Below, in pieces: positions 25,982-34,598 of a DNA stretch of 64,000 bases. Under the pieces are notes generated by a model. It worked only from the letters and a program-made list of their open reading frames with translations. It ran no database searches and was not told the DNA's origin. This DNA comes from Massalongia carnosa (lineage: Eukaryota). Both the position numbers and the translations under genes were made by a program. Position 1 is the first letter of the stretch. The number at the start of each line of letters is the position of its first letter. The DNA lies in NCBI GenBank assembly GCA_965645245.1, contig OZ287068.1:1736001-1800000 (forward strand). Reading direction: 5' to 3'.

Positions 25982-28012
25982 TCAATATTTATCCAGGAAA
26001 AGATAGGGGAAAAACCCCACCAGTACAATTCCCGTACCTAGTTCCGTCACCGACTGATAGCGCCTCACCGCCGCATTTTTATGTGAGCCGCCCACTCCAT
26101 GCGACGAGCTGAATGATCCCCAGTGCAATTTAGCTCCATCGTGGCCACCTTTGGGATCTGCTTCTCTGCGGGCCACGTCGCCTGCGTTGGCGACGGCAGG
26201 CTGCACGCTGGAGGGGGCGGGAGGGAGGTGGGGAGAAGCGGGCGCGGAGAGGGGAAGGAGTGCCAGGGCGCCTGGAAGCGCGTGGAGGAGAAGGATCGCA
26301 AGGAGGAGGGATAGGGCGCTGGAGGAAGAGGAGGAGGACGAGGAGGAGGATGAGGAGGGGGATTGTCTTGCTACTGCACTGGATGAGGTTGCCGCGCTCT
26401 TGCCTTCGGAACGGTCTTTCACCTTGCTGGCTTTGGCCGTGCCTTTACCCGCGATGCTCGTGGCGTTCGCGACAACGGCTGCACTCTTGCCGGTCACGTA
26501 TCCATTCGCCGTGCCGACACCGCTCGAGGCGGCGTAAAATACCTTCCCCCCCTCAGATTGAACGTCACTCGCGATACTTTGAGCTCGGTCGACCGGATGA
26601 AATTCCGGGGCTCCGAATCCTCGCTTGGGATAGGCGTGAGTGACGGTGGTAGCGAAGGTGCGGGCCAAGAAGGGCGTCGGTGTTGGACCTGCCGCGGCGG
26701 TGCTCGTTAGGGGAACGGTTCGGGGAGATGGCGGTTCGGACACGGCGCGCGCTCGCCTGTGAGTTGGTTCGCGGAATGCTATGCCTCCGAGCCAGCGAAG
26801 CTTCATGGTTGGAGTGATGGCGCTCGCGGATAAGGCAACCGACGTAACTCCTCCCGCAGCAACTGGATCCCCCACCGTGGTCTGTGGTCCCCGTGTCTCG
26901 GAGTCCGCTTCGGCTCTTTGATTTATTCTAGCCGCGATCCCCGAATAGGTTTCTGCCAGCTCGTTTCTGTCCGGTTTGACACCCGCCGGGCTATCTAGCT
27001 GAATGTCCGTTTGAGCAGGGGCCGGTGATCTTGCCAACATCTTAGACTCTATAGGGCCCTTGAAATTTTCACGAGCCAGATTGCCGGACTCAGCGCTGTC
27101 TTCTATAGATATCGTTGGCAGACCTGACCGTGCGTTGAGATCTGTGGGAACGATTTCGGGGTTATTCGCTGGAGGCATGGGTCCATCGCTGCTGTCGAGC
27201 TGGCGATGAGAAACGACCGTTTCCTCGCGTTTATTTGACTTGCATCCTCCGTCTGCTTTGCATTGATCTCTATATGCATCGGCTTCTATAGACATCTCTA
27301 CGTCTGGCGATATGCCGTTAGCGGCATCGAGGTTCGCTGGAGGCATGAGTTCGTCACTGCTGTCGAGCTGGCGATGAGAAACGACCGTTTCCTCGCGTTT
27401 ATTTGACTTGCATCCTCCGTCTGCTTTGCATTGATCTCTGTATGCATCTGCTTCTATAGACATCTCTACGTCTGGCGATATGCCGTTAGCAGCATCGAGG
27501 TTCGCTGGAGGTATGAGTTCGTCACTGCTGTCGAGCTGGCGATGAGAAACGACTGTTTCCTCGCGTCTATTTGCCTTGCATCCTCCGTCTGCTTTGCATT
27601 GATCTCTGTATGCGTCTGCTTCTATAGACATCTCTACGTCTGGCGAAATGCTGTTAGCAACATCGCCCGTTGTTGGAGCTGCACTATCGATTGGACTGGG
27701 GCTCAGGGTGCTTGAACTTGAGGTAATGCCCACGGAGCTGCTGATAATGATAGTGGTGGTGCTGCTTGGAGCACCGCCAGCATTAGGATGGATGATGAAA
27801 GCCCCGATGTGAGTGTTGTCGGGTATACCCTTGATATTGTCTATAGCCTCATGAATTATCTTTAATACTGGCGTATCATTGACCAACGACCTGGGTACAC
27901 GAGAGTTTCCGCTGCTGGGACTTGTTGATGATGGCAGCGAAGCCGACAATGTAGTAGCCCAGCAGATCGAGCGGGAAAGTAGAAGTGGAATGACGAAGGA
28001 TGATAAATACAT
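25982..28012 (-). CDS. Secreted repeat-containing precursor with Kex2-type dibasic sites (KEP-like)
   Basis: Single long ORF. Signal peptide MYLSSFVIPLLLSRSICWA, three 56-aa repeats each with RR/KR, an internal hydrophobic segment and a hydrophobic C-terminus. Confidence 0.7.
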   Translation of the reverse strand: MYLSSFVIPLLLSRSICWATTLSASLPSSTSPSSGNSRVPRSLVNDTPVLKIIHEAIDNIKGIPDNTHIGAFIIHPNAGGAPSSTTTIIISSSVGITSSSSTLSPSPIDSAAPTTGDVANSISPDVEMSIEADAYRDQCKADGGCKANRREETVVSHRQLDSSDELIPPANLDAANGISPDVEMSIEADAYRDQCKADGGCKSNKREETVVSHRQLDSSDELMPPANLDAANGISPDVEMSIEADAYRDQCKADGGCKSNKREETVVSHRQLDSSDGPMPPANNPEIVPTDLNARSGLPTISIEDSAESGNLARENFKGPIESKMLARSPAPAQTDIQLDSPAGVKPDRNELAETYSGIAARINQRAEADSETRGPQTTVGDPVAAGGVTSVALSASAITPTMKLRWLGGIAFREPTHRRARAVSEPPSPRTVPLTSTAAAGPTPTPFLARTFATTVTHAYPKRGFGAPEFHPVDRAQSIASDVQSEGGKVFYAASSGVGTANGYVTGKSAAVVANATSIAGKGTAKASKVKDRSEGKSAATSSSAVARQSPSSSSSSSSSSSSSALSLLLAILLLHALPGALALLPLSAPASPHLPPAPSSVQPAVANAGDVARREADPKGGHDGAKLHWGSFSSSHGVGGSHKNAAVRRYQSVTELGTGIVLVGFFPYLFLDKY
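27163..27658 (-). repeat. Coding tandem repeat, 168 nt x 3, near identical
   Basis: Unit ISPDVEMSIEADAYRDQCKADGGCK[AS]N[RK]REETVVSHRQLDSSD..PPAN; tgcatcctccgtctgctttg recurs at 168-nt spacing. Confidence 0.95.
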
Positions 28013-29470
28013 CTTTCTCCAGCGGGAAAACGGTGGTTTTCCAAAAAGAGAGGAATATGGGTGATCTTTTAGAATAGATAGCGAGAGAGTAGGCTGAGAG
28101 GTGATATGCTGGAATCTCAAAGGTTGAACGTATTATGGAGGAAAAGAACCTGTAGCTGCCCGTGTGATATGTGGAGCAACACTAGGTGTAATTAGGTATA
28201 GAAGGTCCGGCTTCTGTAAAGTGAGGGTAGATCGAAGATAACGAGTCTACTTAGGATAGAACAACTTTGGGAACGACAATGTAGGCCATCAACAGGACGG
28301 GCCTGGGGTTTTATGTAGGCACCAGATTTTCCACAGATGCTGTGAGGCGGAGACGTGAGTGAATGAACGGGGGAGTAGTCAAGTGAACGGAACCGATCCA
28401 GTGGCGTAACCTATGCAGTAACTCCTGGCTACACAAGCTTTATGAAACAAATTTAGGGGGAAGAAGTGAAATGCAAGAGATTACGCGAGAGAGAGAGTGT
28501 GTGTGTGTGTATCTATGGTGGTTTCGGTCATTCGCTTTTTCTGAAAGATTTCTGGCAGTTTCATCAAAAGCTGCTGCGGGACTGGCAACGCGGGCTGAAA
28601 CATATTTTGTGGTAAGTGAAGTGGGTGGAGTAGTAGTGAAGTAATGAGGAGAAAAAAGATAGTGGACGAAATAGTAAATGAAGTAGCAAATGGAACATCA
28701 AGTAGGTGAAGTAAGAAATGGGGCGGTAGGTGAAAATGATAATCACACTCTGGTAAGAGAATAGTAAATGGAGTATTGGTAGTAAGAAACATTGCCCCTT
28801 TGTTAATCCTGCTATATCTGCTGCTACAATCCTCCCTTAATCAGATATTTCACCTGTGACTCAAGTTCGATATAATTATTAAACAGTAACCGCTTAAGAA
28901 TCTCCCTTGGCCGTAATATTTGAAAGTTTAACATCAGTCAAACCATCGTGCAAAGGGGGAGTGGAAAGTACTTATGTAGTTATGTAAGCCTCCAACGAAA
29001 TTTGTGCCAAGAAGGAGGAGAAGAAGAAGAAACCCCCCTTGGCTGACTTGACTAATCCTGGATAAATTCGCCTACAGAATTGATTCAGTTCCTTGTGTCG
29101 CCCGTATTAATTAATCCTTCATCCTAGCCCTCAATAGAAACTGATGAGGGTGGATTTTTTGGGGGGGGGGAGGATGAAATGGAAGTGTCGGGAGTAGAGA
29201 ATCTAGCACCATGAACCTTACGATTTCCATCACAGCCACGCGCGTTTGCGTATCTAGTAAAGAGAGGGTGAGTATCGAAATAGAGGAATGGAACGAAAGC
29301 TGACCTGGGGAAAAATAACTAGACGAGGAGGGTAGAAGATACATGGCATCTCCTACCAACTCTCAATCCATCAAAGAATCAAAACCCCTATAAATACCAA
29401 CGCAAACATGGTCCAAACTCCCAGCTCTAGACCAACCCAAATCCCCTTTCCTGAAATTAATTTACCCGCC

Positions 29471-29798: not shown

Positions 29799-31854
29799 AT
29801 CAGCGATGAGAGGCTTGTTGTTGTTACCAAAGTAGATAGGGTGGCCGGTAGAGCTATTGGTAACGTGGTCGATATCAATGTTGAGAGCGTGGTTAAGAGG
29901 GTTATTGGTAGACTACTATACCAGGAGACTTGTTGGAATAACAGACGGGAGAGCCGTTAGGATTTTTGTTAGTAGTAGCTCTGGGGGTACGCCTCGTAAG
30001 ACTAATTCCCCAAGTCCATCCAGGACGATGGATCCTAAGAAGGGAATAGTATTCGAGGACGCAAAAGCCCAAAGAGATGAGCATAAGATCAGCAGAAAAG
30101 GTGTGATGGTTGAAACTGCATTTTATCTTAGTTTAAGGGAAGCTTATGACTTTTGGTGGTAAATTTTCTTCTTAGGGACAGGAGATTTAAGAGGAGATTT
30201 AAGAGAGATGGTATTCTTTGAATGCGAGAAATGTCAATGTCTTAGGGATGGGATGTAGTACAATATTTCACATATACCGCACTAATTTCCTCCTACTCTG
30301 GTTTCGTCGTTTAATGTTAATGTTAGTGATGGATGAATCAATCCACAAGAAGTGATCGATTGCTGCGAAATATCATCTTCGAGTCGCTTCACAACCAAGT
30401 GTCGGCGAAGTCGAAACTCGATAACTCGAATATAGAGACATAACAATCATTCTTCATATGAAGCGTTTGCAGTGCTTTCTATTTTTTGAAGAGAGAACCG
30501 TCTTCTAGCGGCTGGCAACTGCACATATCTTCACCGGCCAATAAACTTATCAAGGTATGATTCTGATTTTCCCAGCGTTTGGCAATTATCAATGAGTACA
30601 ACCCAATCCTCCTACTCAGCTGAAAAAAAGTGGTTTGCCGCAAGTTTTTGTGCAAGCAGGTAAACCATGACCTTTAAGCATCCCGCTGGGAATAAGCCAT
30701 GCAGGAAAGGGGAGGCATTTAAATGAACATATCTTCCTCTGAAAGCTCTGTCACGTTAGTGGCATCTGTAAATAGAGACGTTTATAATAGCAGCTTGTTT
30801 ATATCCCAAATCACAGTGATCTTGATTTCCAAACCAAATGATTGCCAGCAATAGCACTCCGAGTTTCCAAGTCTCTTGTTCATATAATTCCTTCGTGTGA
30901 AATTGGTGATTTCCGCTTCTCGCAATTGCCAGACCCGAGTCTTTCAAGTTACCTTCCCTTGAGCTTTCTCAAATCGTCCTTCTATTTGTTTCCCTGGAAG
31001 GTGCTCTCTGGATCATAATGTGTGATACGTTGAAGGTTGTCACGGTGTGTTTAGACAAATTTCAAGGCTATATGATAACCCCCATGGTGACAGGGGTAAC
31101 CTGCGATATTCCTGCTTTAGAATCAACTAGCTCTTTTGGATATGGGTAATCTTTGCCAACGATGTTATCCGCATAGCCACAGGAACACCGGAAACGAAAA
31201 AAAAAGCTGTCAGATATATTTAACTTGAACGTAGTAACAAGGAGATTCTGGTAAGTGACAGCTTTGAAGTATAAGAATACTGTCCAAAGCCTTCTTGCAA
31301 ACGAACGATCAAAACCCGGAATTTCTGCTGCTTCTCTGTATACGTAACCTCAAGAAGACCATGGCACCAAGTCCGTAATGATGAACCCCAAGCTCCTTGT
31401 GGACTTGAATGTATTTTGAAGAGACTGACGAAGGCTAACCAATGGGATATCCCGGATGTACCTTTATAAATATGTCCAAAGGAGTAACATAAGAGCGGAT
31501 CCTTGCATTGGTAACCTTAGCATAACATAATCAGCACCGCTTTCTATGGCTAATGTCTTAAGAACTACCAGAGGTGTATTGCAATAAGCATTTGATAACT
31601 CTGAAGGTGTAGTCGAAGCGTCTCGGCTCTTGGAAAGACAGTATGCTGTAAGTTGTAGTTGAACAGATGACTAGTAGAAGATCGAGCAATAGGATGAAGC
31701 AAATAGTTGATAGCTGATAAGGTAAACGACTTAGCCTAGACCCAGCAAGCCAAAGAGGATTGGAAGGGTATCTGTAGCTACTAGAGAAACAATATTCCAT
31801 TTTCCGAATTTTTCTTGGTCAAGTATTAGTTTTCGATAACTAAAATTTATCAAG

Positions 31855-32050
31855 TCCTTTATGGTCGAGTGGTCAAGACACCTCATCTCCCCTCTTAAGG
31901 CCAAGGATGGAACTTCCCCGGGAGTCCGTAATCCATCCTTGCGAATCGCATGCCACTGTGTAAATCCTCGTTAAGTCTGAGAGGGTTTCGTGTACCAGAT
32001 CTGCCAAGCTTGAGCGCAACACTCAACTTGCCGGCTGGGAGACATTTTGA
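31855..32050 (+). ncRNA. Candidate structured Pol III non-coding RNA (unassigned family)
   Basis: A-box TGGTCGAGTGG (31862-31872) inside a perfect tRNA D-arm. Several stems (e.g. 10 bp, 31902-31911/31932-31941) and a closing helix. T-runs at 32045-32057; B-box GGTTCGAGTC at 32107-32116. Confidence 0.5.
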
Positions 32051-33440
32051 TGTTTTTATAGAAGGGGGAAGGGGGTGGTGATCGGAAATTTTTGGAGAAG
32101 GACGGTGGTTCGAGTCTTGGTTTTGCAGGATATTTTCAGGGGTTTATTTCTTTCCAAGGTCTTTCTTTTTCTTTCAACAACACGGAAAGCTTAAATTTTC
32201 CTAGGAGATGGCTGCACTTACATCGTTCTTACATGTGCCTCTTCATCAATACCAAAATACTCAACTATCCACCCCAAACAACACAATCGCCACCCTAGCT
32301 TGCCCAGTCTTTAATCTGCCCCATAAACTTAAGTACCGATCACCTATTCGCGCCGGCACGACCACTATAGTAACACCACCTACCTATCCGTACCATCAAC
32401 CACCACCACCACCACCACCAACAATAACAAGAGCAACAACGAAAGAATTCAGAAACGCTTCCACTTCAACGTTGCACATACTAAGCTGCAAAATACACAA
32501 CACTAATCCTAACAATGTGCTATTTGCTTATTCATATCCCACGACACCTCCCCATATTAAATAGTAAATATAACATAAGAGCTTGAACACAGCAGCGTTT
32601 TAAAGTAGATGAAAAATTTTGTCATCAGCGAACAACGCGCTTCCATTCAAGCGTACCTCCATATGTCGAGGAGTATATCGCCAAATTAAATTAGGCTAGC
32701 AGGCACAAAAAACGCTACAGCGAAGAATTTAGAAAGCTACCACGATTGGCATCCCTTTGCAGATTTATCTTGTTTAAAAAAAAAAAAGGGGGCCGCAGCG
32801 CCCAATATCTTTATCTCAAAATGCCGCACAGCATAGAGCCCAAGAACTTTCGCAAAGCTCTGCGGGTTTTCAACACGTCGATCTGGGCAAAAGATTCCAT
32901 ACGGTGGTATTATAGACCTAATTCATAGATAGGTAGGTTGGTTAGAGTGTAGTCTCTGAACTGGCAGGGGCATGCATCCGCGCGCTTGCATGGCTCTTGG
33001 CAGGCCCGGCACGCTAGTTACTAGGGAGCTGACTAAACATTATTCTCTAAAATCACACACACCCACTTCCTTGTAATCATGAGAAAATGCATTCGCTTGC
33101 CTTTCAAAATTCGGAAATATGAAATGGAAAGCGAAACCTCTGGATTCTGGAATCGACTTTTGACTTTAAAATTGATCTAGTTCTCTCACTGCTCTAAAAG
33201 GCTGCACAGAAACTCAACCGCCAAGCATCCTCATCATTGATGAACACCGTGTCCATACCAGGCGTTAAAATACCCAATTTCATGGCCTATCAAAGCTCAT
33301 GATGACTTGGAAACACCTCCAACGCATACCTAGTTCACCCCTACTTTTCCATGACACATATTTTGCCATACTCGGAGAATATCCAATCTTGCTCCCCGAC
33401 CATTCCTAGATCTTCCGTTGAACCGCATCCACAACTGCAG

Positions 33441-34598
33441 TCAGTCATCACCGGAGAGATCGATAATCTCTTCTGTGGTCGGGGAAGTAGCAGCCTTAGG
33501 TTTCTTTTCCCAGGCTGATTTTATAATCTTTTCATATTCTTCATCCCGCTCTCGTTTGACACCCTTCTCTGCCTTGAGTGGCCCTTTAGTTTTGCTGCGT
33601 GCAGCCTTCACAAACAGGTCAGCATGTCTGCATCAGCTTTTGAGCAGAGAGGGAGATGCAATACCATTTGCGTCCTAGCATATCCTCGGAGTTCCTCTTG
33701 GGTCCATTGCTCAACAGAGCGATGCTTCAAAGCAACAGGAGAAGGCGTCCTGGGAACCAGTAAATTTTTCTGTAGAGCTTCTGCAGTGTTTTCGGAAAAA
33801 TTTTTTTGGTGGCATGGTATGTTCTCACTTCGTGAATGATATTCAAACTTAAGAACCGCATTCGGAGAGTTGCAGCCATCTTTGTACTTAACCTCAAAGA
33901 TCTCCTTGGAATTGACTACCCGCTTCCTTCCTAGACTGCTTTGGTCCATAAGTCATGTGGAGATGTAGATTATATGTCCTTACCTGCAAGAAAGAATCCC
34001 TTTTAAGTTTTCCTCCGAAATCTCGGTAATTGGTTGCAATTCTCAAGGTAAAATTGATCGAGATCCGTTAGTGATCTTCCTCAACATTACCATGCGGTAA
34101 ATTTTGACATCTATGCTCCCCAACGCACTGAGAGAGTCTCTGGGGAGCCTGCTAGTATCTACTGCGGCTTCTACGACTGCAGCGGTGAGTGACCGAAAGC
34201 ACTACTTAAAACACCAACACTTACCATGTCTTAGCTCCTGAAACGTGAACGGCCTCCGTTCCCAAATATTTTGGTTTGAAGTCTCTGAACCATGGACGCT
34301 ACGTTTCCATTGATGTTTACTCTGTTGAATTTATCCTTGAGCATCATCACAATTTCCACGAAGATGCCATCTAAGTAAATCCCCATAGCAAGAGCGTCCG
34401 ATGTCATTCTATATGATCTGAAAACCGAGATATTTATTATGAAGCTAGCATTGGAAATAGCCTCCTAGCATTGGAAATAGCCTCGACGTGTTTGACTATC
34501 ATGTTAGGGCTTTCGTTGTTCATTTGTTCCCCCTCATATCGATGGGATTGCCTCACATCGATAATCACGTTAATCTCAAAATCTCCAAGGATGGCCAT
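33441..34598 (-). pseudogene. Pseudogene of a conserved fungal family (DUF7918-like), introns retained
   Basis: Reconstruction: MAILGDFEINVII...VEAISNA/SFIINISV..LAMGIYLDG...RPFTFQEL|..LGSIDVKIYR..ISEENLKG|..FEYHSR..LLVPRTPSP..EELR..|..VKRER..IIDLSGDD*. Broken by a 20-bp duplication, another frameshift and an in-frame TGA. Confidence 0.65.

Follow-up and report, generated by a model that had tools for sequence, protein, structure and literature searches.

A locus on the + strand of Massalongia carnosa contig OZ287068.1 has the organization of an RNA polymerase III (Pol III) gene in which an internal A-box is combined with a B-box behind the terminator. On balance, we favor the view that it would encode a small non-coding RNA of ~200 nt, the most diverged of a three-member undescribed family, with a protein-binding 3′ module. 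Promoter boxes, an AT-rich upstream region, T-runs, paralogs and a shared 3′ module are seen in the sequence itself. It is likely that the three loci form a functional Pol III RNA family; given such a family, the odds that the RNA acts as a protein-binding scaffold or decoy are about even. The initial annotation had proposed an undescribed fungal Pol III RNA gene. In its core, this proposal gained support from two diverged paralogs, both boxes, the AT-rich upstream DNA and the B-box of the genome's U6 gene, but its details concerning a D-arm, a closing helix and an ACA end were lost.

Genomic setting and promoter layout

Within the window (the whole 64,000-nucleotide stretch that was analyzed), the element lies in an otherwise non-coding interval, as had been noted, between a small ORF near 29.3-29.8 kb on one side and a multi-exon gene at ~33.4-34.6 kb on the other, which is followed by Cut8, Mtr4 and RecQ genes. 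The nearest named relatives of the neighboring Cut8 protein are from lichen fungi (Sticta, 83%), and a lichen metagenome also contains the window stretch. The multi-exon gene beside Cut8 (33447-34598, minus strand) keeps its synteny in many lichen and other Pezizomycotina loci, and the single exon of it that was scanned gave no Pfam match. Elsewhere in the window, a 716-codon frame (25982-28132, minus strand) codes for a Ser/Thr-rich, probably secreted protein with three tandem copies of a ~45-residue unit and no Pfam match.

The words originally read at the locus are where they had been placed: the A-box, the GTC/GAC pairing around it, a perfect 10-bp stem, the hairpins, ACA, T4, T5, the Sm-like word and the B-box. 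Taken singly, both boxes occur at chance level within the window (3 A-boxes seen vs 3.6 expected, and 4 B-boxes vs 4.4). For scoring, 28 of this genome's nuclear tRNA genes supplied the box matrices. The A-box (31862..31872), an internal promoter element found at the equal position in the two paralogous loci (L147 and L149), scored 11.9, in the tRNA-gene range of 6.9-13.1, and the B-box (32107..32116) scored 15.1, in the range of 10.8-18.6. The upstream 62 nt (31792..31853), a likely TFIIIB site, are 76% AT, compared with 0.68-0.95 for 19 tRNA, U6 and SRP genes of the genome, and an AT content of 0.72 is reached by 0.4% of the window tiles. Transcription would start at ~31842-31854.

The genome's U6 gene (L038), which like its SRP RNA gene is located away from the element, carries the identical 10-letter B-box at +122, 22 nt behind the gene end, so that the promoter layout of Saccharomyces cerevisiae SNR6 is in use in this genome. 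In yeast SNR6 the B-box is found behind the terminator, at an A-B distance given as 202 bp in the part of the source consulted here (PMC9136082). The distance from A-box start to B-box start is near this value in the three copies (245, 223 and 182 nt), and the order body, T-run, B-box of the window copy is identical in L147 and L149. In the window copy, the B-box lies 13 nt past the last T5 and 49 nt past the first. The locus thus has both marks of an SNR6-type gene, an internal A-box of tRNA quality and an extragenic B-box past a T-run. The predicted promoter is real by several measures (box scores, upstream AT content and the U6 B-box), and the SNR6 layout proposed for it was borne out.

Genome-wide searches covered 52 Mb in 25 contigs. 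When an A-box followed by a B-box 150-270 nt downstream was searched for, 4 loci were recovered, against ~0.7 expected and 0 in the reversed control. These were the window locus, L147 (contig C5), L148 (C5) and L149 (C9), all of them AT-rich upstream (0.69-0.77) and with a T-run ahead of the B-box. A relaxed layout search gave 14 matches vs 6 in the control; among the 9 examined beyond the first four, only L158 was AT-rich upstream (0.76), and the other eight (0.44-0.61) were rejected as chance or repeats. L164, on a tRNA-dense 70-kb contig that is probably mitochondrial, was left out, and L168 and L171 contain no boxes. L159, L161 and L162 (contigs C7, C9 and C10) are copies of a dispersed repeat that share a head, G-runs and a word resembling an A-box; this is probably the end of a transposon.

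The 5′ part of the element had been described as the head of a tRNA D-arm with no T-arm to follow. The latter is correct, with no tRNA reported by ARAGORN in the window and no T-stem around the B-box. The D-arm itself had to be given up: its A-box is the only family feature, and neither L147 nor L149 can form the D-stem. A tRNA with a giant intron was rejected as well, since ARAGORN found none with introns of up to 400 nt (default and 90% threshold), and both a T-stem and an acceptor stem are missing. As a separate observation on the tRNA genes of this genome, a tRNA-Arg(ACG) gene (L145 140-263; contig C1, ~3481458-3481581) has a 52-nt stretch within the D-loop that bears the marks of a spliceosomal intron, namely a GTAAG donor, an ACTAAC branch-like word and a TTTAG acceptor. 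In silico removal of the 52 nt leaves a 72-nt tRNA, as recognized by ARAGORN, and a literature search turned up no clear earlier case of a nuclear tRNA gene carrying a spliceosomal intron.

Paralogous loci and a common 3′ module

Homology between L147 and L149 is clear, with blocks that are 75-80% identical. The window copy is the most diverged of the three, and lacks the linker and loop-B motifs common to the other two. Shared by all three are a GGC linker, whose start lies 38, 39 and 38 nt after that of the A-box, then a hairpin A of variable length, hairpin B, TGTA, hairpin C, GAG and a T-run. In the window, the linker and hairpin A occupy 31899..31941 (stem probability 0.94-0.96), and the perfect 10-bp stem is read at 31902-11/31932-41. 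Hairpin A has 40 nt in this copy, compared with 13-48 nt between equivalent base pairs in the paralogs, and in a hand parse 3 of its 4 base pairs differ among the copies yet stay paired. Hairpin B (31962..31988; AATCCYY/RRGGGTT) retains its 7 pairs in 3/3 copies, with an invariant U-G pair and 2 pairs altered on both sides; its loop is not conserved in the window copy. It is followed by the conserved 3′ module (31991..32041), supported by alignment, descriptor and covariance model, that comprises TGTA, hairpin C and GAG. Hairpin C (31995-32038) is built of an invariant CCAG/CTGG, a 2-nt bulge, 3-4 bp, a pyrimidine.C mismatch and again 3-4 bp, a geometry found again in 0.07-0.9% of the shuffles made from the interior of each hairpin. 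One descriptor, fitted by hand to these copies, parses all three with every pair kept despite the letter changes.

The initial annotation saw in this region a multi-hairpin fold of ~160 nt. Single hairpins do fold beyond shuffles (z -1.8 to -3.4, for spans chosen post hoc), with hairpin B at z -3.4 on the + strand and -1.2 on the - strand, but the whole region is at chance (z -0.13), and seven + strand spans of 149-284 nt range from z +0.09 to -1.06. The helix TCTCCC/GGGAGA, which was thought to close the fold, is weak (p 0.24 for 4 bp), and overlaps and competes with hairpin C.

The relationship of the window copy to L147 and L149 becomes apparent when the 3′ module is anchored. In a 3′-anchored alignment, the window copy reached a score of 43 against L147 plus L149, and 0 of 2500 genomic controls (from a pool of 3016) did so, the maximum being 36. 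When a covariance model trained on L147 and L149 only was run over 97.6 kb, the window was its top hit (17.6 bits, E 0.0095), the next-best reaching 11.5 bits; these E-values are rough. The core pattern is present in 3 of the 4 layout loci and nowhere else in the genome (1 in the control), although it was designed from those three and shows rarity only. Other comparisons gave less: plain local alignment to L147 and L149 was equaled by 41 and 67 of 2000 shuffles (p 0.02-0.03), and nhmmer with the L147/L149 profile did not find the window copy in 1.09 Mb. In a machine-made alignment of just these three sequences, 82% of the cells are paired, a level equally high in 20/500 shuffles, and the RNAalifold covariation term is unfavorable (+0.88). 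The modest covariation is partly due to one-base register shifts that were left uncorrected. If the window locus were unrelated to L147 and L149 and not a gene at all, the chance-level single boxes, the chance-level overall fold and the link missed by nhmmer would be accounted for. Such a coincidence is hardly credible, because layout, composition of the upstream DNA and anchored 3′ module point the same way independently of one another, and by these sequence measures the window locus belongs to the L147/L149 family.

The family appears to be small. Three related loci were recovered, and not the many dispersed copies that the initial annotation had named as the mark of a SINE; a fourth member was not found in three further genome searches with exact patterns or a loose DNA search.

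Predicted transcript ends and competing identities

The first candidate terminator of the window copy consists of a T4 (32045-48) and a T5 (32053-57) run (32045..32057). As both paralogs hold a T4 within the body, on the 3′ side of hairpin B, and in 25 of the 28 tRNA genes a run of at least five Ts lies no more than 40 nt from the gene end, the T4 at 32045-48 is probably read through. In a near-identical lichen contig, the T5 at 32053-57 is reduced to a T4 (32057 T>G), and for the same reason the RNA would stop there at the second candidate terminator, a T5 at 32089-93. The RNA would then be about 200 nt long, or up to ~245 nt if read on to this T5. The second T5 lies inside the Sm-like word (32087-95) of the initial annotation; the word is present, but it is located beyond the conserved module and is more likely a terminator than an Sm site. 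A G-rich stretch (32060..32103), which L147 and L149 do not have, could form pairs with 31854-31895 in a transcript that extends this far, and these helices have p 0.65-0.96 in the long fold, yet their energy is not beyond chance (z -0.36 to -0.94).

The terminator of the window copy is the weakest of the three (L147 has T8), which bears on the idea that this copy is a decaying pseudogene of a real L147/L149 family, weakly or not transcribed. Its divergence, the loss of the linker and loop-B motifs, its T4/T5 stops and the T5 lost in the near-identical contig would fit such decay. Nevertheless, both boxes score like those of tRNA genes, the upstream DNA is equally AT-rich, and the stems differ from those of the paralogs by paired changes rather than breaks. 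Also, none of the 5 single-letter differences seen over 1.8 kb falls within 31845-32050, a number too small to carry weight. We consider a pseudogene unlikely and retain the reading of a functional, diverged family member. Sequencing runs yielded only DNA contigs; those from 2 of 4 runs span the stretch with an identity of at least 99%, and being near-identical they give no covariation data.

The position of the T-runs bears equally on a retroposon origin, in which the three loci would be old copies of a low-copy tRNA-derived SINE and the 3′ module a retroposition signal. The tRNA-type boxes, the tRNA-unrelated body and the T-rich end are features of such elements, and the Aspergillus tRNA-related SINEs are likewise described, in the text available for PMC5063351, as low-copy and without cloverleaf folding. 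Among these, Aspergillus fumigatus AfuSINE2 resembles our loci in its tRNA-type boxes, unrelated body and low copy number (PMC5063351, same text). Here, however, T5-T8 runs separate body and B-box in all three copies, so that the B-box falls outside the likely transcript and a retrocopy would lose it; the boxes are not degenerate. Flanking direct repeats are not above chance and the shared flank words have 5-6 nt, although old duplications could have decayed. DNA searches (a loose first look) find only three copies, and the core motif occurs nowhere else in the genome, so that no LINE tail carries its exact form. A SINE, which had been offered as an alternative at the outset, is thus improbable.

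A second such alternative was an atypical H/ACA RNA, or more generally a guide RNA for rRNA or snRNA. The element was said to end in ACA-TTTT, and these letters are present, with ACA (32042-44) after hairpin C and three letters before the T-run. In L147 and L149 there is no ACA, and the sequence goes from GAG directly to T. Since ACA is not a family feature, the H/ACA assignment falls, and no H box (ANANNA hinge) is found between the hairpins. Contiguous matches to rRNA, U6 and SRP RNA were scanned. A 12-nt complement to ITS2 and complements of 10-11 nt to rRNA would suit a guide, but the 4 complements of 10 nt or more compare with a mean of 2.3; this number is reached in 21% of 426 control tiles, and 14% contain a 12-mer complement. 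Only 7-mers of complementarity are common to the three copies, and no guide family in Rfam matches. A guide function is very improbable.

No known RNA was recognized. With Rfam 15, the window gave 0 matches at the gathering score, the element none at E up to 10, and L147-L149 none at E up to 0.5; the families covered include U1-U6, U6atac, SRP, RNase P/MRP, 5S, snoRNAs, Y, vault, 7SK and telomerase RNAs. This agrees with the earlier statement that the element is not U1, U2, U4, U5, U6, SRP, RNase P/MRP or 5S RNA. Apparent resemblances to U6atac, U4 and the RNase P T-loop were rejected because they gave no Rfam match and the words are not common to all copies. Telomerase RNA was rejected because the longest match to the CCCTAA repeat is only 4-6 nt. 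Two side observations were made on these RNAs and repeats. The RNase P RNA of this genome was unmatched by Rfam among just 15 candidates scored, and its gene may be diverged or interrupted. At the left end of the rDNA-bearing contig C3 (L044 1-600), the telomere is not uniform: besides plain CCCTAA it contains a longer variant unit, which accounts for 25 of 66 units over 600 nt; six other ends checked have plain repeats of ~160-170 nt.

Known systems, further units and significance

In a working model drawn from SNR6, TFIIIC would bridge the A-box inside the gene and the B-box past the terminator by binding both, and would place TFIIIB on the AT-rich upstream DNA; Pol III would then make an RNA with a U-tail and a series of consecutive hairpins. 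This RNA might act as a protein-binding scaffold or decoy rather than a base-pairing guide. The suggestion is based on where the invariant letters cluster: they concentrate in hairpin B, at the base of hairpin C, in TGTA and in the GAG by the U-tail, while hairpin A and the loops vary freely. An RNP-binding site would show this pattern. It is also based on the lack of a shared antisense target, complementarity to rRNA, U6 and SRP RNA being at chance.

The unit shares with SNR6 and the genome's U6 gene the internal A-box, the B-box past the terminator and the AT-rich upstream DNA. It differs in that its RNA body is not U6 (no Rfam match) and in occurring as three diverged paralogs with variable hairpins. 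The 7SK, Y and vault RNAs are Pol III products that serve as RNP scaffolds, conserved at their ends and variable in between. Our candidate resembles them in size, U-tail, a 3′ hairpin by the tail and a small paralog family, but it gives no Rfam match to them and has no conserved 5′/3′ closing stem. The obvious protein partners would be LARP7/Pof8 and Bin3, but the supplement of PMC8917221 lists neither Bin3 nor Pof8 as present in Cladonia, Lobaria, Xanthoria or Neurospora; the LARP7/MePCE partners of 7SK are thus listed as missing from these three lichen fungi.

Among filamentous ascomycetes, Neurospora crassa milR-1 to -4 are also transcribed by Pol III from intergenic loci, and they too have hairpins and end in poly-T (PMC3547838, as far as its accessible text goes). 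The three loci could accordingly be imagined as primary transcripts of microRNA-like small RNAs, the more so as the major Neurospora milRNAs are described in that text as Pol III products, partly with putative A- and B-boxes (PMC3547838). We regard this as rather improbable: the copies share no long stem, hairpin C is bulged, has 32-44 nt and varies in its arm letters, and hairpin A measures just 13 nt in L149. Moreover, milR-1 itself has neither an A-box nor a B-box in that account, using TATA-like elements (PMC3547838). A protein-binding small RNA remains the reading that we prefer for the family.

Two further loci look like additional orphan Pol III units. L148 1501-1742 (contig C5:2196640-2196881) and L158 (contig C6:556809-556941, minus strand) each combine an A-box, hairpins, a T-run, a downstream B-box and AT-rich upstream DNA, with no Rfam or ARAGORN match. 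Both are without the 3′ module of the family, as their anchored scores (10 and 15) compare with a control mean of 10.8, and L148 reached 8.3 bits (E 4.4) on the L147+L149 model.

Conservation in other fungi, a check proposed in the initial annotation, was not found at the syntenic site. The best 80 of 118 Cut8 loci from metagenomes were compared, 6 of the 80 showing both flanking genes. There, nhmmer detected no homolog (best E 2.5), the A-plus-B pattern was present in 2/80, neither of them a homolog, and ARAGORN on 46 and Rfam on 7 of the 80 loci found nothing. The three-copy model R1, run over 89 sources (1.12 Mb), recovered only its own three training copies. The lichens compared are distant (their Cut8 proteins are no more than 77% identical), and Pol III genes change position; for these reasons the syntenic absence limits conservation without refuting it, and says little on close relatives. 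In the prokaryote and virus collections, a strict pattern gave 0 matches and a looser one 28 and 3, none with the rest of the module; of the 31 loci chosen there for hairpin B plus TGTACCAG, 0 had CTGGGAG or a B-box behind.

In a survey of 15 fungal RNA motifs, none like the window RNA is described in the part consulted (PMC5640933). A description of this RNA family was not found in our literature search either, most subscription papers lying outside it. Within that scope the RNA is of no described family, and as a kind of gene, the SNR6-type Pol III unit is known.

To our knowledge, the set of known fungal Pol III RNAs is short: tRNA, 5S, U6, SRP, a few yeast RNAs and the Neurospora milRNA precursors. 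A rule that is easy to apply but outside standard annotation, namely to look for an A-box, a T-run and a B-box downstream of it together with AT-rich DNA upstream, found five orphan units in one genome. We tentatively suggest, as an idea that could well prove wrong, that filamentous ascomycetes have overlooked, fast-evolving Pol III small RNAs on U6-type promoters, at least five orphan units of which (the family, L148 and L158) occur here, and that the 3′ module binds a fungal RNP in a lineage without LARP7/MePCE. If a paralog family of this kind, unmatched in Rfam and with a 3′ module that is conserved and covaries, is real, it would bring a new RNA into the known set and probably also a new RNP.
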